Shown here one piece after another: positions 2,357-59,180 of a DNA stretch of 64,000 nucleotides. The position numbers and the translations under genes are program-made. Positions within the stretch are counted from its first letter, which is position 1, and every line of letters starts with the position of its first letter. The notes under the pieces were generated by a model. It saw only the letters and a program-made list of their open reading frames with translations. It was not told the DNA's origin and made no database searches. Source of the stretch: Candidatus Aminicenantes bacterium (GTDB lineage Bacteria; Acidobacteriota; Aminicenantia; Aminicenantales; Aminicenantaceae); assembly GCA_020348385.1 (NCBI GenBank), contig CP070750.1, forward strand, positions 4,264,520 to 4,328,519, given 5' to 3'.

Positions 2357-2419
2357 ACGGCCCAAATATTATAGAATAGGTATTTGCTCCATCATATCTC
2401 ATCAAACAAAGGTGATAGA

Positions 2420-5582: not shown

Positions 5583-5616
5583 CAAATTCCGTTTCCTTTT
5601 TTTAAATAGTATTTTT

Positions 5617-13466: not shown

Positions 13467-13476
13467 GATAAATTCC

Positions 13477-17445: not shown

Positions 17446-19161
17446 CTATTTCCCTATGCAGTACAAATTTTTTGTTCCCCGGATGTATATCCGATTATGC
17501 ATGAAGGCAGGGATGCTCACCGCCGTTTCACCCAGTTCGTTCCGGCTTATCAGTTCGTATTTCTTATCCGCTTTAAAAATATACATAGTCCCCGACATAT
17601 CCATCAGATACACCAAGTCTCCGACAAGGATGGGAGAGGAATAGAATCCCTCATCGAACTCCTCGATCCACATCCTCTCTCCGGTCTTGTTGTCAAAACA
17701 TGTCACAGTGCCATAACTGGCAGCCATGAATAATAAGTTTTTGGAAGCCAGAGGACTGGATACTTCAGATAGATCGTCGATGTATTCCCACACCAGCTCC
17801 ACGCTCTCTCCTAATTTTATGCCAGCTAGGCGGGCATAGTCGTTGACCGCAAACACCATGCCGTCGGCATAGGCGGGAGAGGGGGCGATTTCCCCCAGCA
17901 TGCATTTCACCCGCCACAACTCCTGCCCTGTTCGGGGATCGTGAGACATCACGAACGGGTTGGAATTGAGGATGATCTCCTCTCTTTTTCCCGTGTTTAC
18001 CAAAATGGGCGATGCCCACGAAATCTCCACTTCCCTCGGTTGATCATATACGATATCCCCTGATTGGGCTCTCAAGGCGAGCAAACGCCCTCCCGTGTTC
18101 TGGTCGTACTGGACCAGCAGCAGATCTTGATAGGTGATCAACGACGACGAGTGCCCGTAATGATTTTCCGGCACGCCTAGGTTTTTGGCCCAGATGCGAT
18201 TCCCCTCTAAATCGAGACAAGCCATATCTCCCGTGGCAAAAAGAGCAAAAATTCGGGTACCATCGGTTGTCATCGTGGGGGCGGCAAAACCTGTATCCTC
18301 GGTAACCTGGGGGCGTCTTTCGGGAGAGCCTGGAATGTCATTCAATTCCATCTGCCAGAGAATCTCTCCCGAGTCGGCATCGATGCAGTACACAACTTGT
18401 GTCCTTCTGTCCGCACCCGAGAGGAAAATCTTTTTTTCCCATATGATCGGGGAATTATAACCGGGATGAGGAATCGGAATTTTCCAAAGGATGTTCAAAC
18501 CTGAGGGGCCGTCCCATTCGGTAGGTACATCCGTATGATAGGCCCAACCAATTCCCTCCGGGCCGCGGAAACCGGGCCAGTTATTCCTTATTTCCTGAAT
18601 GCTGGTATAGTCTGGAACACCCTGTCTTTTTCCCGGTTGAAAAATGCCTATCTTTTTAAGCTCAGTCTGGGATATCACCCCGAAAACCAAGGCCAGCAGC
18701 ACTATTCCCAGTCCACCGTAAAGGATATATTTTCGGGATAAAAGCCTATTCTCCCGAGTCTTTTCCGGGTCGGGACTTTTGGTTAAATCGGGCAACCTGG
18801 GTTCGAGCGAACTCATGTATTTCAGAGCCAGAAGACAAACGAGCACAAACGCGAACAGAAGGTAACTCCCTGTTCGGATCTGCCATTGATGGGTGAAATA
18901 CGCTTTTCTGGCCAGCAAATCGAGAGCCCGGATCTGCTCTATCAAAACCGTGTCTTCCGGATTCTCTCGGAGCTTTGTCATCAGTTGAGAAATGGCCTGG
19001 CTGTTGAGCGGATCAACCGACTTCGTCTGGATGTAATTGGCGATCATCAGAATACTGAGAATTCCCGCCAACACAGCGCAGACAACGGCGATCCTTTTGG
19101 CGATTTTGTACCAAAGCTCTGTCCTGTTTTTTCTGTTATTTTCGATAGGTTGTTTTTCCAT
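17446..19161 (-). CDS. Membrane-anchored PQQ-like beta-propeller repeat protein (paralog with ~190-aa N-terminal region containing TM segments)
   Basis: Hydrophobic segments IAVVCAVLAGILSILMIANYI, LLFAFVLVCLLAL and ILYGGLGIVLLALVFGVI precede a WPGFRGP motif and the propeller blades. Start is most likely MEKQPIENN at 19161, giving a 4-nt gap to the upstream stop; the alternative at 19194 would overlap. Confidence 0.75.
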   Translation of the reverse strand: MEKQPIENNRKNRTELWYKIAKRIAVVCAVLAGILSILMIANYIQTKSVDPLNSQAISQLMTKLRENPEDTVLIEQIRALDLLARKAYFTHQWQIRTGSYLLFAFVLVCLLALKYMSSLEPRLPDLTKSPDPEKTRENRLLSRKYILYGGLGIVLLALVFGVISQTELKKIGIFQPGKRQGVPDYTSIQEIRNNWPGFRGPEGIGWAYHTDVPTEWDGPSGLNILWKIPIPHPGYNSPIIWEKKIFLSGADRRTQVVYCIDADSGEILWQMELNDIPGSPERRPQVTEDTGFAAPTMTTDGTRIFALFATGDMACLDLEGNRIWAKNLGVPENHYGHSSSLITYQDLLLVQYDQNTGGRLLALRAQSGDIVYDQPREVEISWASPILVNTGKREEIILNSNPFVMSHDPRTGQELWRVKCMLGEIAPSPAYADGMVFAVNDYARLAGIKLGESVELVWEYIDDLSEVSSPLASKNLLFMAASYGTVTCFDNKTGERMWIEEFDEGFYSSPILVGDLVYLMDMSGTMYIFKADKKYELISRNELGETAVSIPAFMHNRIYIRGTKNLYCIGK

Positions 19162-19165
19162 GATA

Positions 19166-20512
19166 CTAAGCCCTGAACTGTTTGATTCGAACATCCCGTC
19201 TATCCAATTCCTTGAGTTCCTCTGGCGTCATCAGTCCCAATCGAACTTGCTCATAGGGACAGTAGGCAAAGCAGCGTCCACAGCTGAGGCATGTCCCTTT
19301 GTCCACATCATACTCCAACTGCCTCCGCCGGATAAAAAGGCCGATAAGTTTCAAGCAAAGGATCAAACCGATAAAACCGCCCAATATCCAGCCTCCCCTA
19401 CGGAATTGGCTTTGGATGACACTCGCTTCTGCAAATAACTCTTCCGATGGTTTTCCCGTAGCACGGAAGGCTTTTGTCGCATCGGTCATCTCCGTTCTTT
19501 TTCCCGCATTTTCCAGAAGCACCTCTTCAGCCAAAGATACGGTGGGATGCAGACGGGACAGAGAAACATCCAATCGTGATCCGATCCAGCCAAAACCGAT
19601 GACAACAACAGGAAGGAGGACAAGTAGGGCCGCCACCTGTTTGACATCTCCCTCTCTTTTCATGGGCTGTGTTTCATCATCCGCCTTTTTTATGGCTCCG
19701 AACGGACAGGATTCCTCGCACAACCGGCAGTTGTTGCACTCATCCGGTGTGATCCTGACGTGACGCCTGGAAAGACGTGACATCCAGTTCAAAAGCACTC
19801 CATACGGGCAAAGATAACGGCAGTAGGGACGAGCGACGACTGTTCCCAGCAAGAGCATGGAGAAACCAAAGATGACCATGTTGAAATCTGCCCCAAAACG
19901 GAAAAATCCGATGAAAGGATCGTACTGGCATATGATAAAACCCGCGCCTGTTGCGGCAAACAAGACAGCAAGGCCCAAATAGACATACGGAAAAACACCC
20001 AAGAGGGCAGCCAACCATTCCGGCACGTTGATCGGATTCAGGACGACAGCATCCTGAATGGCCCCGAGAGGACAAACGGCAGCACAGAATGTGCGGCCGA
20101 AAAACAAGGCAAAAACTAAGGGAAGAATAAAAAATAGGACGACAGACAAAGGAATAATGTAGGCTGGGTTGAAAAAAGCGTAGCTGACATTCTGCACAGC
20201 TCCGACAGAACAGACACATCCCTTCCTGTAAAACCCGAAATAGGCAAGAGCAAACACCATCAAAAGGAAGATGTTCCGACGGGAGCGCTGATTGTGAGCG
20301 AAATACGTCGCTAAAGAAAGGGCCGCAACCAAGACGAATATATCCATGTATTCCCATACAGCAGCTCGCGGTGCCGGTGTGAGCAGATCGGGCCGCACAT
20401 AACCCGATTCAAAATCGGGCTTGGGAAAGCGCTCCTGAACTTGGGAGAAGACAAATACAGGACAGAGGAGCACCAGAGCCACAACAAAAATCTTCAACCG
20501 TTTCAATTTCAC
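19166..20512 (-). CDS. NapH/MauN/NosR-family membrane-bound 4Fe-4S ferredoxin-type protein
   Basis: Multiple TM helices. CAAVCPLGA and CRYLCPYG motifs are typical of the NapH/MauN family. C-terminal ferredoxin motifs CNNCRLCEESCP and CLSCGRCFAYCP. Confidence 0.75.
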   Translation of the reverse strand: MKLKRLKIFVVALVLLCPVFVFSQVQERFPKPDFESGYVRPDLLTPAPRAAVWEYMDIFVLVAALSLATYFAHNQRSRRNIFLLMVFALAYFGFYRKGCVCSVGAVQNVSYAFFNPAYIIPLSVVLFFILPLVFALFFGRTFCAAVCPLGAIQDAVVLNPINVPEWLAALLGVFPYVYLGLAVLFAATGAGFIICQYDPFIGFFRFGADFNMVIFGFSMLLLGTVVARPYCRYLCPYGVLLNWMSRLSRRHVRITPDECNNCRLCEESCPFGAIKKADDETQPMKREGDVKQVAALLVLLPVVVIGFGWIGSRLDVSLSRLHPTVSLAEEVLLENAGKRTEMTDATKAFRATGKPSEELFAEASVIQSQFRRGGWILGGFIGLILCLKLIGLFIRRRQLEYDVDKGTCLSCGRCFAYCPYEQVRLGLMTPEELKELDRRDVRIKQFRA

Positions 20513-22344: not shown

Positions 22345-23778
22345 TTATGGATTGACCCTCAGATCGATACAGACCAATCGGCGCGAATCCCGCGCGAGCA
22401 ACCGGCCCTCAACAAAAGCCAACGGCCCCCAAGCATCCACTCCTTCGAGAATTTTGACCTGAGCCAGTTGAACGTATTCCCTTGCACTGGCTCTGGCTAT
22501 AGTTAAAACTCCATCATCGCTGAGTATGAAAAACTTATCATCTGCCACGATATAAGGGCCCAGCCCGAATCGATTCGTCTTTCCGCTGGACCAGATAAAT
22601 CGACTGATGTCATCCGGATGGCAGCACACGAATTGATTGCGCAGCGGTCCGGCATCCTTGGGCAATATGCAAAAAAGATGACCCGAGAAGAATATCGGTG
22701 TTTGTTGCTCGGACGCCATTCCTTCCTCCGGTTTTATCGTTTGGATGGCTTCCACCGAAAAAACACCGGCTTCCTCCTTAATTCTGACCATCGAGCTGCC
22801 CGACCCGTATCCGGCCGTCAGAAAGATTCTCCTATCTCCCAGATAAACGGGAGATGGCGCGATGACATTGTGGTTCCACAAACGGGATTCAAACAATATC
22901 TTGCCCGCTTCCTCCCCATCTGCGGCAACACCAACAATCCCTCCGATAGCGCAGTACACATACATCTTTATGCCGTTTATGACAAAAGGCATGACGGAAG
23001 AATGGGACATTTTCCAGTTGTTGGGATTGGGCGTTTCCCACACCACCTCACCGGTTTCACAATCGACAGCAATGATCAGCGATTTCCCCCCAACAGCAAA
23101 CACGGCCAGGGTGTCATCGATCAGAGGGCACTGCCCGGTGTACCAAAGGGGCACCTCGGTTCCATAGTCTTTTCCCAAATCGATGCCCCATTTGAGATCT
23201 CCGGTGACTGCATCCACACACATGACATGACATTTAGGCCCGATGGTCACAACATACTTTTCTGTTGCCGCTGGAACAGTCCGAGACATCCCATGATTCC
23301 GTTTCACGAAAAGGTCATACCCCCTCCGCCAAATCTCAGCTCCATTATCCAAAGAAAAACAACGCAAAACATCCGCCCTCTGCTCTTCATCGTAATCCAG
23401 AAGATAGACCCGTCCGTTCGAAACGACTGGACCGGCATGACCCTCCCCTAAATCTATGGACCAGAGAATATCTGGCCCTGCATCGTCCCATCTGTCGATA
23501 AGTTGGATGTTTTCCTTGCTGATGTTATCAAAATCGGCTCCCCGGAATCTCGGCCAGCTCCCACGGATTGCGGAGGGGATTCCCTCGAAACTTTCGAAAT
23601 GGGCACCGATTTCCACAGCATCGCTAGCGCTGACAAATCCAAGAGGTCGGTTGTCCATCCCGGGAAGGCTTTCTGCAAAATCCTTGACCGGATTGTACAG
23701 GAGCCACCAAGTCAGAAAAACCAGCCCGAGAAAGGCTGTTCCGAGAATAGTGACACGGTTTACTAATTTCTCATTCAT
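22345..23778 (-). CDS. Membrane-anchored PQQ-like beta-propeller repeat protein (paralog)
   Basis: Probable start is MNEKLVNRVTILGTAFLGLVFLTWWLL (TM anchor) at 23778, preceded by GGTGA. WPRFRGADF motif and blades. Confidence 0.8.
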   Translation of the reverse strand: MNEKLVNRVTILGTAFLGLVFLTWWLLYNPVKDFAESLPGMDNRPLGFVSASDAVEIGAHFESFEGIPSAIRGSWPRFRGADFDNISKENIQLIDRWDDAGPDILWSIDLGEGHAGPVVSNGRVYLLDYDEEQRADVLRCFSLDNGAEIWRRGYDLFVKRNHGMSRTVPAATEKYVVTIGPKCHVMCVDAVTGDLKWGIDLGKDYGTEVPLWYTGQCPLIDDTLAVFAVGGKSLIIAVDCETGEVVWETPNPNNWKMSHSSVMPFVINGIKMYVYCAIGGIVGVAADGEEAGKILFESRLWNHNVIAPSPVYLGDRRIFLTAGYGSGSSMVRIKEEAGVFSVEAIQTIKPEEGMASEQQTPIFFSGHLFCILPKDAGPLRNQFVCCHPDDISRFIWSSGKTNRFGLGPYIVADDKFFILSDDGVLTIARASAREYVQLAQVKILEGVDAWGPLAFVEGRLLARDSRRLVCIDLRVNP

Positions 23779-24994
23779 CACCGATATGATAGACCATAAG
23801 CGCATCGCCGTGCCGGATGTAAAGACGCCCGTCCTTGATAACGGGATGGGCCCAGTGTTCACCAGAGCCTTTTTTCACCCGAAAAGAACTCACCAGATGA
23901 AACTCCTCAGGATTGGGTTTGACCAAACCTACATACCCGTTTTCACTGTAGCAAAACATCATTCCATCGGCAAAAATGATCGCCCCTTTATTCCCAATTT
24001 TTCTTGCCGTGTACTGGACTTTTCCGGTTTTCCAGTCCAGGCAATGCCATCCTCGATTATTATGGCCCGAGCCGTAAATATAGCCGTCGACTAAAATCGC
24101 GGCTCCCATCTGACTGTCAAGCTTTCTTTGCGACCAGACCCGCTTGACACTCGCTCCGTCTTCGGAGAGCTGGAACATCTGACCGCCGGTACCATATCCG
24201 CTCACCGTATACACAAAACCGTTATGATAGAGGGGTGTGTTCGCATTAACTGTATAATCCGTGACATGGGATTGGCGCCACAGATAGTCTCCTGTATCGG
24301 CATCGATGCCGACGAAGGAGCTGCCCGTCATGGTTAAAAGCAGGCGTCTTTTGCCGTGTTTGACAAGACAGGGAGAACAGTATCCTGATGATTCTCCGTC
24401 TGCTTTAATCTCCCAGATCGTTTTCCCGGAATGCCTGTCCAATGCAACGATCGTGACTTTCCGACCTCCAGGGGTGCAAAAAACCCGATCCCCATCCACA
24501 AGAAGGGACTCCGTCATTCCCCACTGCAAATTCCGTGCTCCGAATTGTGCCATCAGATCGACCGACCATATCTTCTTGCCATCCGTGCTAAAACAGACAG
24601 CTTGTCCCTTGGCGCTCATCAAGTAGATCCTGTCGCCGACAACGGTGGGAGTGGTCCGGGCACCGGGTCGACTTCCATTCCATTCCGGGCCGTAGGAGGC
24701 TTTCCAGACAGTTTTCCCATTTCTATCGAAGGAAAACAAAAACCCTTCGCCGCCGGTCATCCCGGTCAGATAAACACGATCCGCTGTCACGGCCGGAGAA
24801 GAATAGCCCTCCCCAAGACCCTCCACAGACCATATTAGCGCAGGCCCTACCTCCGGCCATGCCTTCAATAGATTCTCGCCGGGATAAACACCATCCCGGT
24901 TGGGCCCCCGCCACTGGGATTCTATCTGCCCTAAGGCTATAGAACATCCCAACCCAATAAACAACAAGGTGGTCACCACAAAGATTTTTTTCAT
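23771..24994 (-). CDS. PQQ-like beta-propeller repeat protein, secreted (paralog)
   Basis: Signal peptide MKKIFVVTTLLFIGLGCSIALGQ. QWRGPNRDGVYPG motif. Blades such as YSSPAVTADRVYL. Confidence 0.8.
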   Translation of the reverse strand: MKKIFVVTTLLFIGLGCSIALGQIESQWRGPNRDGVYPGENLLKAWPEVGPALIWSVEGLGEGYSSPAVTADRVYLTGMTGGEGFLFSFDRNGKTVWKASYGPEWNGSRPGARTTPTVVGDRIYLMSAKGQAVCFSTDGKKIWSVDLMAQFGARNLQWGMTESLLVDGDRVFCTPGGRKVTIVALDRHSGKTIWEIKADGESSGYCSPCLVKHGKRRLLLTMTGSSFVGIDADTGDYLWRQSHVTDYTVNANTPLYHNGFVYTVSGYGTGGQMFQLSEDGASVKRVWSQRKLDSQMGAAILVDGYIYGSGHNNRGWHCLDWKTGKVQYTARKIGNKGAIIFADGMMFCYSENGYVGLVKPNPEEFHLVSSFRVKKGSGEHWAHPVIKDGRLYIRHGDALMVYHIGDE

Positions 24995-25094
24995 CTCACA
25001 CCTCTACTCACTTTCTTCATTTATAACCAGAATAACCGAGAGAATTATATTCTAGGACACTTTGCGTATTCTCAGCAATCAACTTGTAACCAGG

Positions 25095-25140
25095 TCTCAA
25101 TATTATACTAATCCTATGGAATTAATATTATAACAGATTT
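25095..25140 (-). promoter_or_regulatory. Candidate sigma70-type promoter with an extended -10 (TGnTATAAT) for the minus-strand gene run starting at 24994
   Basis: The reverse complement of the AT-rich 25000-25157 spacer contains aaatcTGtTATAATatt and, further downstream, a tagTATAAT element. Match by eye only. Confidence 0.25.
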
Positions 25141-25157
25141 TGGATCAAACGTTAGGG

Positions 25158-26519
25158 CTATTTTTCAGAGATGGCCATGAGATGATGATGGGTTCGGATA
25201 TACAAGGTTCCCTCAGATATGGCAGGTGTCGCCATGCATTTATCCTTCATCGGATTGGTTGCCAAGACTTCGAATTCAGGTCCCGCTTTGATGACAAAAA
25301 CATCTCCCTCTTCACTGGCAAAATAAAGTTTTCCATCTGCTGCCACACCGGAGGCTGAAAAACCTGTCATTTTCCCCAGCTGTTCTTTGTATACCACTTC
25401 ACCTGTTTTTGCGTTGTAGCAAGTCAGGGCTCCGTTCCACTGCAAATTGTAAAGAAAATCGCCGTAAATGAGAGGTGTCAGCATATATGAGCCTCCTCGC
25501 CTGACGCTCCAGACAATGGAATCGTTGGAAGTATTGTCTTCCTTCAAGGATATGTCTCCCTCTGACTCCAGTTTTATTGCATAGATAGGAGACAAGCGTC
25601 CGTGAGCACTGTTGATGAACACCATACCATGGGCAACCACAGGTGTGGGAACCGGGATATCCCCTCCCCCGGATATTTCCCATATTTCTTTTCCCGTTTT
25701 AAAATCATAACCACCCATGTGTTTGAATCCGTTTACGATGATCTGCGTTTGTTTTTCTCCCACATGAACGGTCGGTGTGCTCCAAGTGGGAACATCCTCA
25801 CGGGCAGTCCGCCAAATTTCCTTCCCGGTTTTAATGTCCAAGGCAGCAAGGAAGGCAGTGTTGAGAGCATCGCATTGGACGATGACAACGCCCTGGTGGA
25901 TAACCGGAGAACTGGCAAACTCCCATTGGGCCGACGGCACCATAAAAAAGGCCGCATCGAGAAGACCGAAGTCTTTTTTCCAGATCAATTTGCCGTCCAT
26001 ATTGTAACAATAGAGGCCTTCAGAGCCGAAAAAAGCAACCACGTATTTCCCGTCTGTGGAGGGTGTTGAATTGGCATGGGTTGCCTTGGGATGACGTTTA
26101 ACTTTGGGAACACCCTTGTGCGCTGTTTTTTCCCACATTATTTTTCCGGTTTTTTTATCCAAGCAGTACACTTTCCATTCGTGCACAGAGTCATCATCGA
26201 CGGGTTCGATACTTCCATACAGCCCCACTTTGAGCTCCGCATCAGCTTCGCCAGTTGCCGTTGTGACAAACATGCGATCTCCCCAAATAACAGGACTGGA
26301 ATGAGCCAATCCGGGCAGCTTGATTTTCCAATTAATGTTCTTGGGTGTATCTACATCCCAGGATACAGGTGTAGCATATCTATCGGCAATACCACTGGCG
26401 TTTGGCCCACGGAAACTGGGCCAGTTTTCCCCATCAGTCGTATTCTGGCCTTGCAGTACGATTAACGTTCCGAATAAAATCACCGTACTCAGTAAAATCC
26501 TACTTGAATTTCTTAACAC
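25158..26519 (-). CDS. PQQ-like beta-propeller repeat protein, secreted (paralog of 2420..3835)
   Basis: Signal peptide. WPSFRGPNASGIA motif. Co-linear and ~55-60% identical to the + strand ORF at 2420..3835. Confidence 0.85.
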   Translation of the reverse strand: MLRNSSRILLSTVILFGTLIVLQGQNTTDGENWPSFRGPNASGIADRYATPVSWDVDTPKNINWKIKLPGLAHSSPVIWGDRMFVTTATGEADAELKVGLYGSIEPVDDDSVHEWKVYCLDKKTGKIMWEKTAHKGVPKVKRHPKATHANSTPSTDGKYVVAFFGSEGLYCYNMDGKLIWKKDFGLLDAAFFMVPSAQWEFASSPVIHQGVVIVQCDALNTAFLAALDIKTGKEIWRTAREDVPTWSTPTVHVGEKQTQIIVNGFKHMGGYDFKTGKEIWEISGGGDIPVPTPVVAHGMVFINSAHGRLSPIYAIKLESEGDISLKEDNTSNDSIVWSVRRGGSYMLTPLIYGDFLYNLQWNGALTCYNAKTGEVVYKEQLGKMTGFSASGVAADGKLYFASEEGDVFVIKAGPEFEVLATNPMKDKCMATPAISEGTLYIRTHHHLMAISEK

Positions 26520-35324: not shown

Positions 35325-36323
35325 TCAGGAATCTTTCTTCTCTCCGCTGTAATATCCTTCTCTTGTCCGCACCATATAGCTCTTTTTTTTCGTGCTGACC
35401 TTTATTTTCCGGTACTCGTTGTTGGGATCTGTATAGGATGTGTATCCAAGAATGTACTGATGACTCAGTTCCTGTTTGATCAATCTCAAAGCGTTTTTCA
35501 AATCCAAAGTCTTATTGACAAAAAAGGCTTTTCCGCCAGTCGCTTCTGAAAATCTTTCCAGGGATTCAGCGATACCCGAAACGGTCAATCCCTTTGAACG
35601 TTTGTATTTTTTTAAAAACTGTTCATCCAGAGGGATTTTATATCCGATGGTGTATATCGGGATGTCCACCCTCCGCGCAACCTCGATAGCCTGTTCGGGG
35701 GAATATTCGCTATCATTTTCGATTCCGTCTGTGATCAAAAGAAGAGCCCGCTTTTCATTATTCCCCCTGTTTGCAAAATCCGGGGATACACCCACGGCAT
35801 CGTTCAAGGCTGTCTGACCGTATGCTTCTGTCCTTTCCAAAACAGACAAAAAATCTGTTTTGTCTCTGGAAAAACTTGAGGCAACCTCCACATCCCCATC
35901 AGCAAATATCAATAATGAAACTTCATCTCGGTCAGCAAGCAGGTGATTCATCAGATAATCGAGGGCCTCCTTGCTTTCGCTCAGCTTATCCTGAAGGGCC
36001 ATGCTGCCGCTCACATCGAGGAGGACGGTTAAACTCAGCGGCGCTTCAAAATTGTGGCTGAAATAGGTGATCTCTTTTCTTTTGTTATTCTCGTATACAG
36101 AAAAATCTTCCTCCGTGAGGTCGGTAATATGCCTCCCTTTCCTGTTTTGAACGCTCACTGAGATGGATATGGCAGTAACGGCCACGTCATAGGCTATTTC
36201 CTGTTTCTTTTTTTCCTGGGTACAGGACAAGGAAGAATTCCCATCCGATAAAATTGATAATATGAAGACAAGGAATAGGAACATTGACAGACTCTTTTTT
36301 TTGCCAAGGATGATTTTTGCCAT
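35325..36323 (-). CDS. von Willebrand factor type A (VWA) domain protein, secreted
   Basis: MIDAS-like LLDVSGSM ... TALNDAV ... LLLITDGIEN motifs. N-terminal hydrophobic leader. Confidence 0.75.
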   Translation of the reverse strand: MAKIILGKKKSLSMFLFLVFILSILSDGNSSLSCTQEKKKQEIAYDVAVTAISISVSVQNRKGRHITDLTEEDFSVYENNKRKEITYFSHNFEAPLSLTVLLDVSGSMALQDKLSESKEALDYLMNHLLADRDEVSLLIFADGDVEVASSFSRDKTDFLSVLERTEAYGQTALNDAVGVSPDFANRGNNEKRALLLITDGIENDSEYSPEQAIEVARRVDIPIYTIGYKIPLDEQFLKKYKRSKGLTVSGIAESLERFSEATGGKAFFVNKTLDLKNALRLIKQELSHQYILGYTSYTDPNNEYRKIKVSTKKKSYMVRTREGYYSGEKKDS

Positions 36324-36618: not shown

Positions 36619-38745
36619 ATGAAGCTTAAATCAAGTTTTTTCCTCAGGATGGCCGTCATGTTTACCATGTTTGGTCTGATTATTCACGTTCCCCTGAACG
36701 CCGCACAAAAAGTGCCGATCAGCTTTGACAAATACCATGGCTTCTATGGCACGGTGGACTATCTCAAAGCCGTGGCCAAAGCCTATCCCGACATCACAAA
36801 ACTCCTGGATATCGGGAAAAGCACGATGGGCAGATCGATCTATGTCCTTGTGATTTCCAATATGGGAACAGGGACGACGATCGACGCCCATGTGGGCCTA
36901 CGAAACATGCGAAAAGAAGGGGTGAAAAATGTAATCCCGATGAAACCCTATCAAGGAAAACCAGCCCTATGGATCTCCGGAGCCACGCATGGGAACGAGT
37001 TCACCGGAACCGAGGTCTGCCTGTATACCATCGACAAACTGGTCTCAGGATATGGATCTGACGAGCAGGTCACAGCAATTATCGATAATAAAACCTTTTA
37101 CATCTGCCCGATTGTCAATCCGGATGGCGTGTACAACAGCGTGGAAAGGGGCATTCCGCAGAGAGCCAACAGCATGAATAAAGACGACGATAAAGATGGC
37201 AAAGTGAACGAGGATGGTCCAGACGACCTCGACAGTGACGGTCGGATCCTCCAGTTCCGTTACAAGAATCCCAAAGGGAACTATGTCGTGGACGACCAAG
37301 ACCCCCGCTTGATGATACGACTCCGGGGAAACCAGAAAACCGACAAGCCCCGTTATTCCGTTATCACAGAGGATAAAGATAACGATGGCGACAACAAGCA
37401 CGGGGAGGATTCAGAGTCAGGGATCGATCTCAACCGCAATTACCCCGAGGGCTGGTGGCGCACCGACGGTTTTGCCGGCGGAAAGGGGGACTACCCCATT
37501 TCAGCGCCTGAAACCCACGCCATGGCCGAATTTGTAACCAACCACACCAATATTCTGATGGCGCAAAATTACCATACATCGGGAGGATTCACCTTCCGGC
37601 CGATGGGGACAGCTCCACACACCAACCTTCACCCCAAGGATGTGGCGGTGATGGATTTCATCATGGGGAAAAAATACCTGGAGATCATCGGAGAAGATGT
37701 GCCGGAAGCATGGAAAAATCCCGAGGATCTGGATAAATATAAAGAAGAGCTCAAAAAAACATCGAAAAACAAATACGCCATCATGCGCGGATACGAGCTG
37801 CCAAGAGGTTGGAGAGTCAGCTACAACGAAGAACGGGACCAACGTTATGGATACGGCATGGCAGCTGACTGGATGTACATGCAATACGGCATGTTCGCCC
37901 TATGCACTGAACTCTGGAATCCGATGAATGACATCCGGGATTTCCCCAAACCCGAAGGGGATGTGAACTACACACAGATTCAACGGGAAGCGCTGAAATA
38001 CCAGGACGAAAAATACGACGGTAAACTTTTTATCGATTGGAAACCATACAATCACCCCGAGCTGGGTGAGGGTGAGATCGGCGGCTGGCTTCCCAACTTG
38101 CGTAACAATGCATGGCCCGGGGATCCGCTCCGTAAAGTCTGCCAAGACCATTGGCAGTTCACGCTCTTCCGCGCTGGGCTTTTACCGGAGGTCGTGATCA
38201 CCGATGTTAAGGCCGAGGTGTTGTACACAGCCAACAGCGCCAAAGAGGCAAAAGCTATTCAGAGTGGTGATCAGGTCACGATCAAAAAAGGGCAGTCAAA
38301 GGGAAAATTCAAGGTAATCAAGATCACAGCTCAAGTCAAAAACGAGGGGAAACTAGCCACCCATGTCGCCCGAGGAGCCCAACTTGCCGGAAATCGGGAG
38401 GATGTGATCTGGTTGGTAGGCGATCCCGCCAAAACAACTTATCTGTTGGGAACGCCATTCCAAAAGCTGGGAGTGATGGAAGGAACCATGAAAATTCCCG
38501 GGTACTCAGGACAAAGGATGCCGGCAGCCCCTGCCCAGCAGCGATCCCAGCGGCGGTTCTTCTATCCTCCGGGCTACCCGATGCCCTTCATGCGGCAACA
38601 ACGGAGGCAGCCGACCCGAGTTGACCAGAAGGGCCCTTCACGGACAGCCAAATGGCTGGTGGCGGTGGAAGGAAACACGCCGCTCAAAGTGGTTGTCAGT
38701 TCGCAGAAGGGCGGCACCAAAGCGAAACCTGTCTCTATCGATTAA
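36619..38745 (+). CDS. M14-family zinc carboxypeptidase with Asp-rich calcium-binding-like inserts and a C-terminal beta-rich domain
   Basis: Signal peptide. WISGATHGNEFTG (HxxE zinc-ligand motif) and later H. Inserts NKDDDKDGKVNEDGPDDLDSDGRI and DKDNDGDNKHGEDSESGIDLNRN. Confidence 0.8.
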   Translation: MKLKSSFFLRMAVMFTMFGLIIHVPLNAAQKVPISFDKYHGFYGTVDYLKAVAKAYPDITKLLDIGKSTMGRSIYVLVISNMGTGTTIDAHVGLRNMRKEGVKNVIPMKPYQGKPALWISGATHGNEFTGTEVCLYTIDKLVSGYGSDEQVTAIIDNKTFYICPIVNPDGVYNSVERGIPQRANSMNKDDDKDGKVNEDGPDDLDSDGRILQFRYKNPKGNYVVDDQDPRLMIRLRGNQKTDKPRYSVITEDKDNDGDNKHGEDSESGIDLNRNYPEGWWRTDGFAGGKGDYPISAPETHAMAEFVTNHTNILMAQNYHTSGGFTFRPMGTAPHTNLHPKDVAVMDFIMGKKYLEIIGEDVPEAWKNPEDLDKYKEELKKTSKNKYAIMRGYELPRGWRVSYNEERDQRYGYGMAADWMYMQYGMFALCTELWNPMNDIRDFPKPEGDVNYTQIQREALKYQDEKYDGKLFIDWKPYNHPELGEGEIGGWLPNLRNNAWPGDPLRKVCQDHWQFTLFRAGLLPEVVITDVKAEVLYTANSAKEAKAIQSGDQVTIKKGQSKGKFKVIKITAQVKNEGKLATHVARGAQLAGNREDVIWLVGDPAKTTYLLGTPFQKLGVMEGTMKIPGYSGQRMPAAPAQQRSQRRFFYPPGYPMPFMRQQRRQPTRVDQKGPSRTAKWLVAVEGNTPLKVVVSSQKGGTKAKPVSID

Positions 38746-38752
38746 ACGGAGG

Positions 38753-40228
38753 ATGAAGATGAAAATCAAAAGATTGATTAGATACACAGCCACTTTCCTA
38801 TTAGCCATGGTCTTGGTCCTGACTCCCCCAGGTTTTTCTCAGAAAAAACAACAAAAAAGCCCGGGCGGCTATCACGGGGAATTGGACTTTCCGATCAGCT
38901 GGAGCCGGTATTACAGCTATGCGGAGTGGACCAAGATCATGCACGACATCCAGAAAAAGTATCCTCAACTCGCGGATATCCAGTCCATCGGAAAAAGCCG
39001 GATGGGCCGAGACCAGTATTTGATCACCATCACAGCCAAGGAAACCGGAAATCATACTGAAAAAACAGCCATGTGGGTGGACGGGGCTATCCACGGTAAC
39101 GAGGTCAACGGGATCACCTGTTCTTTGTATTTGATGTGGTACCTGCTAACACGGTATGACTATGATCCCTATGTGCACGATCTGGTGGACAACTGCACTT
39201 TCTACATCCTGCCGGGACTGCATGTCGATGCCAACGAATCCTTTGTTATGCATCCCAACACCCCGAATAATCCGCGCGAGCCCTACCGGCCGGAAGATAA
39301 CGATGGCGATGGGCTTTATGATGAGGACCGAACCGAGGATGTGGACGGGGATGGGGAGCTCTCCACCATGTACATCGAGGATCCCAAAGGGACCTATAAG
39401 TTATCTGCTGATAAACGGCTGTTCGTACGGACGGATGATCCCGAAGAGGGAGTGCAACTATTCACGCGCATCGGAGGAGAAGGATACGACAACGATAGCG
39501 ATGGATTGATCAATGAGGACGATATCGGGGGACCTGATCCCAATCGGAATTTTCCGTACGGATGGAACCTTAATGCGGGTAATCCCTATCCGATGTCAGA
39601 GCCCGAATGCCGAAACGTGTTCGAGTTTCAACTCAAGCACCCGAACATCTTCGCCAGTTTTCATTATCACAACACGGGCCGTTTGATCATGTTCCAGGCT
39701 CCTCCAGCAGTTCGTGAGCCCGGGATGTCACCTGAACAAACCCAGCGCATGCGGGAAATGCAGGAACAGCGTCTGGCCTTGATGCGGGAAACCAACAAGT
39801 ATGCTCAACTTTTCGACCGCCAGGTAGCACCGGTCAATCAACACGATATGGATACCCAAACAGCCATCGTTACCGCAGGAGCACGGATTCTACAAAACTA
39901 CCGCCCGACCATCGCCGGGCTAAGCGGCCAGGCCCACGCCGCCACTTACTATATGCTCGGTGCCTACAGTTATCTGATCGAACTCTGGGGCTCGAATACA
40001 GAATATGCGGATATGGACGATGACGGCCGTGTTTCCGATGAAGAGATGCTCCAATGGATCGACATCGAGCTCATGGGTGAGGGTTGGATCGATCCCCACA
40101 AAGTCGACCATCCGGACCTGGGTGAGATCTGGATCGGCGGGACACCAAAAAAACACATTCGCAGAACCCCTCCTGCGCGGTATATCGAACAGGAAGCCTA
40201 TAAAAATGCCCAGTTCGTGATGTATTGA
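38753..40228 (+). CDS. M14-family zinc carboxypeptidase (paralog), terminated by an in-frame TGA that separates it from its C-terminal domain
   Basis: ACGGAGG RBS, ATG at 38753. WVDGAIHGNEVNG HxxE motif. Inserts EDNDGDGLYDEDRTEDVDGDGELS and YDNDSDGLINEDDIGGPDPNRN. The TGA at 40226-40228 aligns with an Arg codon of the paralog at 36619..38745. Confidence 0.75.
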   Translation: MKMKIKRLIRYTATFLLAMVLVLTPPGFSQKKQQKSPGGYHGELDFPISWSRYYSYAEWTKIMHDIQKKYPQLADIQSIGKSRMGRDQYLITITAKETGNHTEKTAMWVDGAIHGNEVNGITCSLYLMWYLLTRYDYDPYVHDLVDNCTFYILPGLHVDANESFVMHPNTPNNPREPYRPEDNDGDGLYDEDRTEDVDGDGELSTMYIEDPKGTYKLSADKRLFVRTDDPEEGVQLFTRIGGEGYDNDSDGLINEDDIGGPDPNRNFPYGWNLNAGNPYPMSEPECRNVFEFQLKHPNIFASFHYHNTGRLIMFQAPPAVREPGMSPEQTQRMREMQEQRLALMRETNKYAQLFDRQVAPVNQHDMDTQTAIVTAGARILQNYRPTIAGLSGQAHAATYYMLGAYSYLIELWGSNTEYADMDDDGRVSDEEMLQWIDIELMGEGWIDPHKVDHPDLGEIWIGGTPKKHIRRTPPARYIEQEAYKNAQFVMY

Positions 40229-40636
40229 GTCAGCGAGTTCACCAAAGTTGAAATATCAGATGTCGCTGTGAGGCCTGCCGCAGACAGCCTTTACTGGATC
40301 GAAACAACAGTCAAAAACGACAGGGTTTACCCAACTGCCTCGGATAGAGCTAAACAATTTAAACTGGTTGAACAGGATAGGATCATGCTCAAGGCATCGA
40401 ACAATATTGCGATGATCGAGGTTCCCAAAGGTTCAGCCGCCACCAACCCAACAAATCCCAATGCTCAGGTGGAAGTGATCACAAAAAAGGGAACAGAGTT
40501 TTGGCTCAAAGGAAAGGAGACTCTTCGTTTCGGCGCTTTGGTGAAAATGGACGGAAGTCAGGGTTGGATCGAAGTTCAAGTGAAGTCACAAAACGGAGGC
40601 ACAGACACGAAACGGATCAATCTCAAAATTCAGTAG
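40229..40636 (+). pseudogene. Same-frame continuation after the TGA. It encodes a C-terminal domain homologous to the C-terminal domain of the first M14 carboxypeptidase, so this is either a split/pseudogenised tail or a sequencing error.
   Basis: Translation VSEFTKVEISDVAVRP...VKSQNGG is in the same frame as 38753..40228. It aligns without gaps to ...LLPEVVITDVKAEVLY...VKNEG of the upstream paralog. The ORF track lists it only from a GTG at 40268. Confidence 0.5.
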
Positions 40637-40680
40637 ACTCGTATCGTTTTTAGCATAAATTTTAATTTTGCGAGGTTTTT

Positions 40681-42030
40681 ATGAAAACAAAAAAGTCTTT
40701 GTTTATCTTAACAGTCGTCCTTTTATCCATGGTTGTGGGAACGACACATCCTCAGGATATCGGAACCGCAGCAGTTCGTGACATCGACAACATTCTTCAG
40801 GAAAAAGATAGAGCAAAAGTCATGAACGAAATTCTGGAATGGAGGTTGGAACACATTATTCCCGAGCTGATGCGGAGGGAAAGGATCGATATGTGGCTCA
40901 TCATCTGCAGGGAGTATAACGAGGACCCGGTTTATCTGACTTTGGTACCAGAACCGACCATGGCCGCCCGCCGAACGTCTATCCTCATCTTCCATGATAA
41001 AGGAGAAGAAGAGGGCGTGGCCCGATTGACAGGCAGTTTCTATGGGATGGGAAAATGGTACAAATCCATCTTCACCGACCAAAGCAAAGACCAATTTGAA
41101 GTCCTGGCTGAATATATCAAAGAAAGCGCTCCGAAAAAAATAGGGATCAACGAATCGGAAACTTGGGCCTTCGGAGATGGGTTGTCCGCTTCATTCAAAG
41201 CCAGTTTAATCAAGGCCCTTGGACCTGAATTGTCAGCCCGTCTGGTTTCGGCGGAAAACCTGTGTGTGGGATGGCTGGAAACGCGGAGCCCTCGTGAACT
41301 GAGCCTGTATCGTCACATCTGCGGGATCGCTCATGACATCATTGCCGAATTCTTTTCTAATCAGGTGATCGTTCCCGATGCAACCACCACGGAGGACGTT
41401 GTCTGGTGGATCCGACAAAGGATCACGGGACTCGGGCTAGAACCATGGTTTCAGCCTTCTGTCTCGATTCAACGATCCAAGAAGGACTCGGAGTTGTATA
41501 AAGACAACCCTCGTGTGATCCGGCGGGGAGACCTGTTGCATTGTGATGTCGGCATCGTCTATTTGGGACTATGCACGGACACTCAAGAGAACGCTTACGT
41601 GTGCCGAATCGGCGAAACCGATGCCCCGGAGGGATTGAAAGAAGCGCTGCGGAGGGGAAACCGGTTGCAGGATATCGTGATGGCAGAACACCGTTTCGGC
41701 CGAACCGGCAACGAAGTTCTCAGTACTTCTCTCGAAAAGGCCAAGGCCGAAGGCCTGACTCCTGCCGTTTACTGTCATCCCCTCGGTGTTCATGGCCACG
41801 CAGCCGGATTTGTGGTTGGTCTCTGGAATCGACAGGACGGCGTCCCGGTTAGAGGTGACTATCCTTTGTATTACAACACATGCTACGCGATCGAAATGAA
41901 CAATAAGTATGAAGTTCCGGAGTGGAACAATCAGGAGATCCGGATGGGCCTGGAAGAGGGCGGTGTGTTTACCAAAGGTGGCTGCCATTTCATCGACGGG
42001 CGTCAAACAAAGCTTTTTCTTATTAAATAA
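40681..42030 (+). CDS. M24-family metallopeptidase (Xaa-Pro aminopeptidase / creatinase-like), secreted
   Basis: Signal peptide. Creatinase-like N-domain and a pita-bread-fold C-domain with metal-ligand-like residues (HCDVGIVY, H...HGHAAGF, E). Confidence 0.7.
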   Translation: MKTKKSLFILTVVLLSMVVGTTHPQDIGTAAVRDIDNILQEKDRAKVMNEILEWRLEHIIPELMRRERIDMWLIICREYNEDPVYLTLVPEPTMAARRTSILIFHDKGEEEGVARLTGSFYGMGKWYKSIFTDQSKDQFEVLAEYIKESAPKKIGINESETWAFGDGLSASFKASLIKALGPELSARLVSAENLCVGWLETRSPRELSLYRHICGIAHDIIAEFFSNQVIVPDATTTEDVVWWIRQRITGLGLEPWFQPSVSIQRSKKDSELYKDNPRVIRRGDLLHCDVGIVYLGLCTDTQENAYVCRIGETDAPEGLKEALRRGNRLQDIVMAEHRFGRTGNEVLSTSLEKAKAEGLTPAVYCHPLGVHGHAAGFVVGLWNRQDGVPVRGDYPLYYNTCYAIEMNNKYEVPEWNNQEIRMGLEEGGVFTKGGCHFIDGRQTKLFLIK

Positions 42031-55233: not shown

Positions 55234-56721
55234 TTAGTCTTTGCGATGCTCAAGCGGAAGGAACACAGAAAAGATGCTTCCTTTATCGGGTTCGCTCGTC
55301 ACCTCGATGCGTCCAAAATGGGAATTCACGATTTTGCTGGCTATCGTGAGGCCGAGTCCCGTACCGGGTATTTTTTTTGTCCTTTCATCATCGGCTCTGT
55401 AGAAATCATCGAAAATACAGGAAAGGTGTTCGGCTGAAATACCGATGCCCGTGTCCTTTATCCTATAGCAGACAAAGTTGCCTTCAACCTTGCCTTCAAG
55501 GAAGACCGATCCGTTTTTCCTGTTGTATTTGATCGCATTGCTTATCAAATTGGTGAAAAGCTTTTCCATGTCTCTCACATCAGCCTGGATCGAGGGAAGG
55601 TCTTCTGCCAATTCGGCCGCGATGGACACCTTGTGTTTTTCGGCATCCGGTCCAAGCAAATCCACGATTTTGAGGATGATATCATTAATTTTAACAGGGC
55701 CCATCTTTTGTGCGACCTTGCCTGTTTCCATCCGGTTGATCACAAGGAGATCATCGACAAGAGCCAACAAAGAGTCAGAACGGTCCATGGCCCGCTGAAG
55801 CCACTGCTTATTCTGCTCAGCATCCCCCCCAGCCTCTCCTGAAACAACCACCTCCAGCCAACCTTTGATCGCAGCCATCGGCGCCCTGAGCTCATGGGCG
55901 ACCATCGATACAAACTGTGACTTGATCTTGTTGATTTCCTTGAGTGCTGTGATGTCTCTAAGAACCGTCACTGCCCCAAGGATTTTGCCATCCTCGTCCC
56001 TGACAGGCGCAATATTGGCCATCAAAATGACCTTTTCATCCTGAGCGGGAATCTCGTGACTTATCATCGAAAAATCCTGATCGTCCGAATTCAAGATCTC
56101 TTTGATGGCTACGATAAGCGGTTCATTCGAAATGTAATACTCGAGGGGTTCTCCGGCTATATCAAAACCCTTGGACTTAAGCATCTTGACACTGGAAGCA
56201 TTCCATAGCACCAACCGACCTTCCAGATTGGCCACCAAAACGCCATCGGCCATACATCCGATAATCGTGCGCAACCGGCTTCTCTCGTTCACAAGCTCCA
56301 GCATTTTTTGCGTCCTCTCAGCATAGAGTTTTTTCGCTTCTAGACGGAGCATCCGCTTTTCCAATCCGCGCTTAACCACTACGGAAAGTGCCTCGGGTGA
56401 GAAGGGTTTGGGCAGATAATCGTATGCGCCAAGCTTTGTCGCTTCCACGGCTGTTTCTATCGTTGCATTCCCTGTTATCACGACCGTTATGATCTCGGGA
56501 TCACAATGATGAACTTTTTTGATCAGTTCCATGCCTCCTATCCCCGGCATCATCAAGTCCACCAAGATGAGGTCATAATTTTTCTCTTTCACCTTCTGGA
56601 GGCCCGTCTTGCCATCCTCTGCAGCATCTACGGCATAACCTTCTTCGGAGAGAGCTCGCTTGCAGCCCTCCCGGATTCCCATCTCATCATCCACGATCAG
56701 GATGTTCGCTTCTGTGTTCAA
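55234..56721 (-). CDS. Hybrid two-component protein: N-terminal receiver (REC), PAS-like region, HisKA, HATPase_c
   Basis: ILIVDDE...DLILVDLMMPG...ITGNA receiver. H-box VAHELRAPMAAI. N/G boxes LISNAIKYN, DTGIGI, GTGLGLTIA. Confidence 0.85.
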   Translation of the reverse strand: MNTEANILIVDDEMGIREGCKRALSEEGYAVDAAEDGKTGLQKVKEKNYDLILVDLMMPGIGGMELIKKVHHCDPEIITVVITGNATIETAVEATKLGAYDYLPKPFSPEALSVVVKRGLEKRMLRLEAKKLYAERTQKMLELVNERSRLRTIIGCMADGVLVANLEGRLVLWNASSVKMLKSKGFDIAGEPLEYYISNEPLIVAIKEILNSDDQDFSMISHEIPAQDEKVILMANIAPVRDEDGKILGAVTVLRDITALKEINKIKSQFVSMVAHELRAPMAAIKGWLEVVVSGEAGGDAEQNKQWLQRAMDRSDSLLALVDDLLVINRMETGKVAQKMGPVKINDIILKIVDLLGPDAEKHKVSIAAELAEDLPSIQADVRDMEKLFTNLISNAIKYNRKNGSVFLEGKVEGNFVCYRIKDTGIGISAEHLSCIFDDFYRADDERTKKIPGTGLGLTIASKIVNSHFGRIEVTSEPDKGSIFSVFLPLEHRKD

Positions 56722-56722
56722 T

Positions 56723-57124
56723 TTAATCCTCTTTTTCTCCGATTAATTTTTCGACTTTGCTGATGAGAACCGCAGGTTCGACGGGTTTGTCGAGAAACTC
56801 ATCTGTTTTCATCCAGTAGCCGTCCTTCTCTAACGAAAACTTGAAGCCTGTTGCATCGGCCACGGCTGTCACCATCAGGATGGGGATTTTTTTAAATAAC
56901 GGATCGCTTTTGATCTGTTTGCTGAAGGAAAATCCAGCATCATGTTTTTCCATCATCAAATCCAAGACGATCAGATCTGGCATTTCTGCTCGCACTTTTT
57001 CCAATCCCTCTTGAGCACTGGTGGCAGTTATCACCTCGTATCCGTGATTCACCAACACAACTTTATGCATTTCGAGAAAATCCAGATCATCATCCACCAA
57101 TAAGATTCGTTTTTTTAGAGTCAT
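56723..57124 (-). CDS. Single-domain response regulator (CheY-like receiver only)
   Basis: RILLVDDDLDFLEM...DLIVLDLMME...ILMVTA...K. 133 aa with no output domain. Confidence 0.85.
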   Translation of the reverse strand: MTLKKRILLVDDDLDFLEMHKVVLVNHGYEVITATSAQEGLEKVRAEMPDLIVLDLMMEKHDAGFSFSKQIKSDPLFKKIPILMVTAVADATGFKFSLEKDGYWMKTDEFLDKPVEPAVLISKVEKLIGEKED

Positions 57125-59180
57125 CTTCCCCTCCTTTCTGCACTTTATTCAAATTAACAATCTTACTCTCGCCCTTCATCCACTCTTTTTGATCCAAAAC
57201 AGGAAGCTGAATGAAAAATTCTGCTCCTTTTCCCAACTCGCTTTTCACATCGATCGTCCCCTTGTGTTTGGACACAATCCCGTAGACTAGAGCCAACCCT
57301 AGCCCTGTCCCTTTTCTCTTTGTCGTGAAAAAAGGATCAAAAAGACGGGAAAGGTGTTCCTCTGCAATTCCTTTCCCCGTATCTTGAATCTGGATTTCGA
57401 TCGCGCTCCTCCCGTTTTTAGATTGACTTCTGATTGTCAAAACACCACTCCCTTCCATGGCTTGAGCCCCGTTCAGGATGATGTTGAAAAAGACCTGCTT
57501 GAGCAGATCAGGGACGGCAAACGTGGTCGGGATCGAGGCCTCCAGTTCTTGTTTCACCTCAATATTCCGGAATAAGGATCGTTTGATGAGAAGAGAGACC
57601 GCCTCTTCGATAATACTGTTGATGTTCACAAGCCCGGGTTTCCATTGGGTCTCCCGAGAAAAACCCAACAGGTCCTTGACTATCTTGGCAGCTCTTTCTG
57701 CCTCTTTGATGACAAGGTCGATGTCCTTTTCCCACTTAGGATTGTGAGCCAAATCTTTCTTCAGCATGCTGCTGAAAAGGGTGATCGTTCCCAAGGGATT
57801 GTTCAATTCGTGGGCCACGCCGGCTGCCAACTGACCGATCGAAGCCAGCTTTTCCGACTGGATGAGCTGTCTCTGGGCCTTTTCCAATTCCTCATGTGAA
57901 ATTTTAAGCTCCTGATGAGATTTCTCCAGACGGGAGTACAGGCGTCGTGATTGGGTGAGAAGATAATGCATGCACATTTCTTTATCCGCCAGACCCTGCA
58001 TGACGGCGATGGCCTTCTCGCGGCAGGTGTTGAAACCACATGCTCCGCAATCCAGATTCCGATTGGGATAGGTCTTGCCCAATTCAGCCAAAACAGCCCG
58101 GATCTCTTCTTCCTTCGGCTCTGGCAGAGATATATCTTGAACAGAAAAGGCGCGTTCAAGGTCCATTGAGGTCAATTTTATAGCAACGTCTTTATCTCCT
58201 TCCCAAACCTCCTCGCTTTGAGACTCAAAAAAATCCACGACAATCTGCTTTCGGCCCGGTCCCGAAATATTCTTGTCCACGATAGGCCCATCGATGCAGC
58301 CTTGACAAAAAAGCACATCGAGAAACTTGGGTCGGATGGCCCCATCCTGCAATTGTTGGAGAGCCCTTATGGCACTCTTCGGACCCGCCGTAATCACGTT
58401 ATCCAAATTCACCAAGTCCTGTTCGAACCCAACGCATTTGGACATTCCGCCAGAGACGCTGAGCACTCTGCCAAGACCCGGCTGAGGTCCATCAAACGCG
58501 GATTCCTTCTGCTTTTCTCGCCTGCTGCCTTTGGCGTTGAGTATATCTCTGTTATCGTGGTAGGTCAGAACACAATCAACGATCCCAGCCAGATGGGGGA
58601 TACGGCACTCATGAATCCGGGAGATACAGGAGCCGAAAAACACCACTTTGGTCTCATCTCCCCGAAGCTTCTTGATGGCTTTACCTGTCGCCACCATCGG
58701 CGAAACCACAGGCAAGAGATGATCGACCAACTGTGGTGCAAATTTTTCGATGTAAAGCACGACCGAGGGACAGAATGAAGAGATATAGGACGTCTTGGCG
58801 TCTTTCCACAGCCATTTTCGATACTCCCGGCTGATCAGGTCTCCGCCGAGAGCAGATTCCCATACTTCCTGGAATACTAGCTTTTTCAGGGCCGTCACCA
58901 ACTGACCCGGCGTTCCCACATCCAGAACAGCCGGGAAAGTGGGATCGAGGCACGCGATCATCTTTTCCCCCGCGTCCAGGCCATCCAAAACCAAGTTCAC
59001 GCCTGTTTGTGTCTGGACAGCCCCATGCGGGCAGTACTTGTAACAGGATCCGCATAATATACAGCGGTTCTCGATCCGAACCACTTTCCTCTGCTCAAGC
59101 ATCAAGGCATTGGTGGGGCAATCCCGCACACACCGGCCGCACAACCGACACTTCTGCCTTGAAATGCTTAAATATTCCAT
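57090..59180 (-). CDS. Sensory [FeFe]-hydrogenase-like (HydS-type H-domain) histidine kinase with N-terminal 2x[4Fe-4S] ferredoxin domain
   Basis: N-terminal CRLCGRCVRDCP + CILCGSCYKYCP. H-domain-like motifs SSFCPSV (cf. TSCCP, first Cys replaced by Phe), FFGSCISRIHE (cf. MPCxxKxxE, Met replaced by Gly), FCQGCIDGP (cf. CxxGCxxG). CGACGFNTC-x16-C matches Cx2Cx4Cx16C. These are followed by a coiled coil, H-box AAGVAHELNNPLG, and N/G boxes ILNGAQAM, DTGKGI, GTGLGLALV. Confidence 0.75.
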   Translation of the reverse strand: MEYLSISRQKCRLCGRCVRDCPTNALMLEQRKVVRIENRCILCGSCYKYCPHGAVQTQTGVNLVLDGLDAGEKMIACLDPTFPAVLDVGTPGQLVTALKKLVFQEVWESALGGDLISREYRKWLWKDAKTSYISSFCPSVVLYIEKFAPQLVDHLLPVVSPMVATGKAIKKLRGDETKVVFFGSCISRIHECRIPHLAGIVDCVLTYHDNRDILNAKGSRREKQKESAFDGPQPGLGRVLSVSGGMSKCVGFEQDLVNLDNVITAGPKSAIRALQQLQDGAIRPKFLDVLFCQGCIDGPIVDKNISGPGRKQIVVDFFESQSEEVWEGDKDVAIKLTSMDLERAFSVQDISLPEPKEEEIRAVLAELGKTYPNRNLDCGACGFNTCREKAIAVMQGLADKEMCMHYLLTQSRRLYSRLEKSHQELKISHEELEKAQRQLIQSEKLASIGQLAAGVAHELNNPLGTITLFSSMLKKDLAHNPKWEKDIDLVIKEAERAAKIVKDLLGFSRETQWKPGLVNINSIIEEAVSLLIKRSLFRNIEVKQELEASIPTTFAVPDLLKQVFFNIILNGAQAMEGSGVLTIRSQSKNGRSAIEIQIQDTGKGIAEEHLSRLFDPFFTTKRKGTGLGLALVYGIVSKHKGTIDVKSELGKGAEFFIQLPVLDQKEWMKGESKIVNLNKVQKGGEDDSKKTNLIGG

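Follow-up and report, generated by a model that had tools for sequence, protein, structure and literature searches.

Bacterial selenoprotein genes carry an in-frame TGA opposite the cysteine of their homologs, within conserved flanking sequence, and the pairing of cysteine and selenocysteine homologs is a criterion in selenoprotein searches, for which TGA-bearing homologs are listed as a filter against false positives (PMC13188914). The bSECIS model comprises a stem of at least 4 bp, a loop of 3-9 nt with G in the first two loop positions, a spacing of 16-37 nt from the UGA, and an MFE of -7.5 kcal/mol or lower (PMC13188914 Fig. 2), and some bacterial SECIS elements fall outside this consensus model (PMC13188914). 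The gene described here, encoding a secreted M14 metallocarboxypeptidase, shares with selenoprotein genes the TGA opposite a conserved cysteine and the conserved flanks, but it has neither a bSECIS element nor a second homolog with TGA, and its cysteine is non-catalytic and replaceable. In the 2026 selenoproteome review (PMC13188914), the word "peptidase" has no occurrence, and the M14 zinc carboxypeptidase class is absent under that word. Likewise, a literature search returned nothing relevant that links Aminicenantes with selenocysteine or selenoproteins.

The locus also resembles young bacterial pseudogenes or truncated alleles generated by nonsense substitution, with which it shares a single premature stop that differs by one base from the ancestral sense codon, no recoding signal, and a downstream frame that is open and undecayed. 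A premature stop of this sort is an already known kind of event. Two features nonetheless set the present case apart, as its stop sits among three other substitutions and falls exactly at a domain boundary, so that the truncated product may keep catalytic activity. We assign a probability of roughly 0.55 to the reading that the TGA is an ordinary and recent stop, generated by a single change of TGC (Cys492) to TGA in an otherwise intact and strongly conserved gene of an Aminicenantes-like bacterium.

With respect to protein architecture, the nearest described enzymes are those in which an M14 domain is followed by an all-beta domain, namely carboxypeptidases D, M, and N with their transthyretin-like domain. 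The M14 catalytic domain is shared (PF00246; PDB matches 1h8l/1qmu, 1uwy, and 2nsm), whereas here it contains large acidic insertions and spans ~490 instead of ~300 residues. Furthermore, the C-terminal domain lacks a Pfam match and displays only generic Ig-like or beta-sandwich similarity.

The interrupted gene and its surroundings

The features of the locus within the window (the whole 64-kb stretch of DNA analysed here) are as follows:

36619..38745, + strand: upstream paralog, a contiguous M14 carboxypeptidase of 708 aa (Pfam PF00246, E 7e-45)
38748..38752, + strand: GGAGG ribosome-binding site of the interrupted gene, abutting 38753
38753..40225, + strand: ORF of 491 codons with signal peptide and complete M14 catalytic domain (Pfam PF00246, E 1.8e-33)
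40226..40228, + strand: in-frame TGA
40228..40241, + strand: four derived changes, each replacing C, from the alignment with the nearest orthologs
40229..40636, + strand: linker and beta-sandwich (Ig-like) accessory domain predicted by AlphaFold, 135 codons, listed as an ORF from GTG 40268
40681..42030, + strand: M24 metallopeptidase gene (Pfam PF00557), directly 3' of the interrupted gene

The TGA stands in the context …CAG TTC GTG ATG TAT TGA GTC AGC GAG TTC ACC… and shares its frame with the ATG at 38753 and with the 3' ORF at GTG 40268..40636 (122 aa). Read-through translation yields 627 codons with a single stop at codon 492 (residue numbering throughout counts from ATG 38753), which reproduces the original prediction of an in-frame TGA between the M14 ORF and the 122-aa ORF. 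In the mechanical ORF list the two parts appear as 38621..40228 and GTG 40268..40636, in one frame. After the TGA the frame continues for 135 codons to a TAG at 40634-40636, with neither a second stop nor a frameshift. The original ORF limits of 38753..40228 are confirmed at the TGA end but probably not at the start: the real start is likely ATG 38759, because GGAGG directly abuts 38753, the orthologous locus L083 has a stop codon directly 5' of the ATG equivalent to 38759, and an ATG equivalent to 38753 is missing from L006. The GGAGG motif itself is kept in about 8/9 of the closest orthologs, with AGAGG in L004 and L082.

The N-terminus (within residues 1-491) is signal-peptide-like, and the PF00246 score of 116.9 bits, compared to the curated threshold of 21.6, places the protein in the M14 family; PDB matches of the catalytic domain found by Foldseek and phmmer were carboxypeptidases A4, B, T, and D. 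In the full-length AlphaFold model the catalytic domain is poorly predicted (mean pLDDT 48), and the model was used for the helix/linker boundary and the confident C-terminal domain only. In this model, helix 474-493 ends the catalytic domain, residue 492 lies in its last turn before the linker, and the C-terminal domain (residues ~500-627) is all-beta with a mean pLDDT of 82. A Pfam scan found no family for the latter, and its PDB matches were generic beta-sandwich or Ig-like folds only (TM about 0.5). The stop is thereby predicted to cut off an accessory domain of ~130 residues while the catalytic domain stays whole.

The upstream paralog, 25% identical overall to the interrupted gene by BLASTP, lies directly 5' of it in 9/9 closest relatives, and the M24 gene directly downstream in 8/9 (synteny alignment). 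Positions 36619-42030 form a three-gene peptidase cassette, M14 paralog (708 aa), M14 (627 aa), and M24, whose order is kept in 8/9 closest relatives (L001-L006, L081-L083), the L005 locus stopping before M24. Only a few bases separate the stop of the paralog from the GGAGG of the interrupted gene, and this near adjoining suggests that the secreted peptidases of the cassette may be co-transcribed. The spacer between M14 and M24 (window ~40637) carries an insertion of ~300 nt in L002 and a shorter one in L006, both missing from the window and the remaining relatives. At the end of the VWA gene (window ~35325-35345), L002 has a run of nine A where the window and L003 read GAAGAAA; this run shifts the frame so that the gene overruns its conserved TGA stop, and either a homopolymer error or a frameshift in the public contig may lie behind it.

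Elsewhere in the window, at least eight paralogous PQQ/BamB-like beta-propeller genes (2384-3835, 4245-6981, 12306-13470, 17446-19194, 22345-26519) alternate with Fe-S and flavoprotein genes (NuoF-like, GltD-like, ferredoxins) in an unusually dense repeated layout. Furthermore, a single ORF on the minus strand (57090-59180) combines 4Fe-4S ferredoxin domains, an [FeFe]-hydrogenase large-subunit domain, and a HisKA/HATPase histidine kinase; it adjoins response-regulator genes (55234-57124) and, judged by its domains, looks like a hydrogenase-like sensor kinase.

Ancestral codon and the patch of substitutions at the stop

The read-through product has more than 120 contiguous protein matches of 625-628 aa, with 100% coverage and up to 90% identity, and the named ones belong mostly to Candidatus Aminicenantes. 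Since it matches contiguous orthologs over its full length, the M14 ORF and the following 135 codons are not a chance juxtaposition. About 275 contiguous orthologs were found in Candidatus Aminicenantes and relatives, none of them with TGA at the site. In a MAFFT alignment the TGA column is Cys in 120/120 ortholog proteins. Among 157 DNA loci, drawn from 80 metagenome loci and 80 species-representative genomes (77 of the latter scored), the site encodes Cys in about 132 (TGC or TGT), Ala in 19, Ser in 4, and Val in 2, and is TGA in none:

Metagenome loci (80): TGC 38, TGT 30, Ala 10, Ser 2, Val 0, TGA 0
Species-representative genomes (77 scored): TGC 33, TGT 32, Ala 9, Ser 2, Val 2, TGA 0

The nine nearest relatives, at 80-86% nucleotide identity, have TGC in 8/9 and TGT in L081. 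The ancestral codon was thus most simply TGC (Cys492), altered at its third position. The original prediction had instead derived a change of CGA to TGA from the arginine of the paralog, and its ungapped match of QFTLFRAGLLPEVVITDV to QFVMY*VSEFTKVEISDV, with the stop opposite Arg, is indeed reproduced by BLASTP. An ancestral Arg codon is, however, refuted by the cysteine of the orthologs and by the TGC or TGT of the nearest DNA relatives, the paralog being only 25% identical. The comparison of orthologs that it had also called for revealed no truncated copy, so that a genuine truncation shared by orthologs was not seen.

The closest relative in the searched collections shares 90% amino-acid and 86% nucleotide identity, the lineage with the TGA allele being represented there by the window alone, and the degenerate pattern K-N-A-Q-F-V-M-Y-TGA matched nothing in either the metagenome or the genome collections. 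The closest genome records (L081-L083, L087, L089, and others; 86-90% amino-acid identity) are TPA metagenome-assembled genomes titled "uncultured Eubacteriales" or "Rikenellaceae". These titles look like unreliable automatic taxonomy, as the same gene family is elsewhere labelled Candidatus Aminicenantes.

The stop does not stand alone. Four derived changes, 40228 C>A (Cys to stop), 40230 C>T (Ala to Val), 40235 C>G (Gln to Glu), and 40241 C>A (Pro to Thr), span 14 bases, three of them within the 13 bases after the stop, and they constitute the densest cluster of window-only changes across the 9.5 kb syntenic alignment. Gln495 and Pro497 are invariant in 120/120 ortholog proteins, and of the five deviations of the window from 241 near-invariant columns, three fall in this six-residue stretch. 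The anomaly is softened by the natural occurrence of both Val493 and Glu495 in other orthologs (Glu495 solely in two loci with Ser at 492, L048 and L114), and by a comparable patch in the M24 gene. There, at 41904-41911, four window-only changes in 8 bases turn NRYK, identical in the 8 relatives covering that position, into NKYE. This second patch is harmless and shows that dense clusters of substitutions are also present at other places along this long branch. Short-patch gene conversion from a donor within the window was rejected as a source of the changes at the stop, since TGAGTCAGCGAGTTCACC recurs nowhere else in it even when up to 3 mismatches are allowed. A recent stop leaves neutral decay too little time to yield the patch around it, and two readings remain: one multi-base event, either mutational or artefactual, or a motif that was remodelled earlier and acquired the stop later.

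Decoding of the UGA

TGA terminates 13/43 of the other long ORFs in the 64-kb window; the VWA gene ends with TGA at the same position in the window and L003, and the upstream paralog does so in L005 and L006. TGA is therefore a normal stop in this clade, without the features of a genome-wide UGA reassignment (genetic codes 4 or 25), in agreement with the original prediction, which had considered genome-wide recoding unlikely. No other split or frameshifted gene and no other in-frame TGA within a gene was found in the 64-kb window. A second candidate, an in-frame TGA at 13479, was rejected, its apparent extension being an alternative frame of the next PQQ-repeat gene.

Judged by cysteine pairing, the site resembles one of selenocysteine insertion, with Cys in all 120 proteins and dN/dS below 0.09 on both sides of the UGA. 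The search for a SECIS-like hairpin 3' of the TGA, which the original prediction had proposed, was negative by folding, Rfam, and the bSECIS model. Four windows of 47-111 nt around or after the UGA folded no better than shuffled sequence (z -0.57 to +0.99). The 63-nt MFE of -10.5 kcal/mol was weaker than that of 12/15 Cys-encoding orthologs folded, and also weaker than that of the window sequence with the four derived changes reverted (-11.2 kcal/mol). The best single hairpin 3' of the UGA has a 6-bp stem and a 26-nt loop. Rfam returned nothing relevant, the permissive scan giving one match only, a trypanosomatid snoRNA at E 0.95. Finally, an explicit bSECIS-model scan yielded 0 candidates in the window, though 60/157 control Cys/Ala orthologs (38%) passed by chance. 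A SECIS element was rejected on the strength of window folding, the comparison with 15 orthologs and the reverted sequence, the permissive Rfam scan, and the bSECIS scan with its 157 controls.

The residue itself also differs from a typical selenocysteine site. Since Ala, Ser, or Val replaces it in 25/157 sequences and no covarying Cys column was found as a disulfide partner among these, Cys492 is not a catalytic redox residue. Its location in the last turn of the modelled helix, before the linker, indicates a structural rather than a catalytic position, and an essential redox or metal-binding residue was accordingly not recognised at 492. Furthermore, the 64-kb window contains no tRNA, and no sel gene (selA, selB, selD) was present among the 38 window ORFs scanned with Pfam. 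Three defining features of selenoprotein genes, a bSECIS element, TGA-bearing homologs, and an essential residue at the site, were hence tested and found absent.

Age of the stop, competing explanations, and meaning

After the stop (codons 506-627), dN/dS is 0.064-0.085 at dS of at least 0.85 relative to the six nearest orthologs, compared to 0.05-0.17 between pairs of intact orthologs and 0.04-0.07 for the catalytic ORF versus its nearest orthologs. Window-specific nonsynonymous and synonymous changes after the stop number 4:3, similar to orthologs. Neither relaxed selection nor further lesions after the stop were thus detected by dN/dS, this count, or the reading frame. The undecayed downstream domain (dN/dS about 0.07) implies that the stop is either very recent or an artefact. 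As the terminal branch measures roughly 0.3 synonymous substitutions per site, neutral evolution of this domain over its whole length would add tens of replacements. If the stop is real and the region beyond it untranslated, it would therefore be confined, by our rough estimate, to at most about 5-10% of that branch; the alternatives are continued translation of the region and an artefactual stop.

Continued translation would explain the downstream conservation equally well, which counts against truncation. One way to achieve it is to decode the UGA, either as selenocysteine, after a newborn Cys-to-Sec change served by an atypical SECIS, or through leaky read-through, in which case one short and one long isoform would be made. 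Besides the conserved cysteine pairing, which is the very criterion used in selenoprotein searches (PMC13188914), this would account for the amino-acid changes just 3' of the UGA, as expected where a SECIS overlies coding sequence, and bacterial elements that deviate from the consensus model are on record (PMC13188914). We nevertheless consider decoding very improbable: no bSECIS-model hairpin is present, the four derived changes lower rather than raise fold stability, no other organism searched has a TGA homolog, the cysteine is replaceable and without a covarying partner, the enzyme is a secreted zinc hydrolase and not an oxidoreductase, and neither tRNA-Sec nor a sel gene lies within the 64-kb window. 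Spelled out as a young Cys-to-Sec replacement in a secreted M14 carboxypeptidase with a non-canonical SECIS, or as leaky read-through generating catalytic-only and full-length isoforms, decoding would make the remodelled residues 493-497 part of the recoding signal, a scenario that we regard as extremely unlikely. Gene fission, in which a second polypeptide would be initiated at GTG 40268 by re-initiation after the TGA, fits the stop at the domain boundary (helix 474-493, linker, beta-sandwich from ~500), the fully conserved downstream domain, and the in-frame GTG 39 nt past the stop. A functional split gene seems improbable, however, because this GTG has no ribosome-binding site: the 13 nt 5' of it (positions -16 to -4) contain no SD-like motif, which precedes a start candidate for 34/43 window ORFs versus 14% of internal start-like codons, and the GAGG present here in 7/9 closest orthologs is lost in the window. 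Moreover, the GTG is the ancestral Val506 codon found in 9/9 closest orthologs, and the predicted domain starts before residue 506. Codons 498-505, 5' of the GTG, keep the conserved residues of the family (K, V, E, I, D, V), which shows that translation covered them until a short time ago.

A sequencing or assembly artefact, with TGC GCC AGC CAG TTC CCC as the true sequence and the gene intact, is possible, though we do not favour it. A faulty local consensus, caused by low coverage, by read ends of poor quality, or by a path through mixed strains, may have introduced the stop together with the mismatches, and it would explain why four changes, all replacing C, crowd into 14 bases, two of them at residues otherwise invariant, in the densest window-only patch of the alignment. 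It likewise fits the normal purifying selection on both sides of the stop and the occurrence of the TGA allele nowhere else in the collections searched. On the other hand, the remaining genes of the window are intact, none being split or frameshifted, the comparable patch in M24 is undamaging and part of the normal divergence of the lineage, and Val493 and Glu495 are natural in other orthologs. Of the options listed in the original prediction, a recent nonsense mutation and an error thus both find support, whereas the evidence, with no SECIS and no TGA homologs, speaks against read-through or selenocysteine insertion.

We therefore return to the ordinary recent stop. A single substitution separates the TGA from its ancestral sense codon, and the orthologs are contiguous at 625-628 aa; the three extra changes beside the stop are not predicted by a simple nonsense mutation and count against it. 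We infer that the allele is real rather than artefactual and that the downstream part is unexpressed. The one-base change of TGC to TGA at codon 492 would create an ordinary termination codon, at which translation would stop (40228), releasing a product in which the signal peptide and the complete catalytic domain are present and the C-terminal beta-sandwich domain of ~130 residues is missing. The 135 codons after the TGA would then be an untranslated remnant that has not yet decayed.

Annotation should describe this M14 carboxypeptidase gene as truncated or interrupted, or mark a possible base-call error, and should present neither a selenoprotein nor two genes. The case also calls for caution in screens based on Cys/Sec pairs, as a TGA opposite a widely conserved cysteine, with conserved flanks, arose here at a replaceable residue, with neither a SECIS nor TGA homologs. 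Beyond annotation the meaning is small. If the allele is real, however, a natural population would show that the catalytic domain can exist apart from the accessory beta-sandwich domain, and the allele could be used to ask what role the latter plays.
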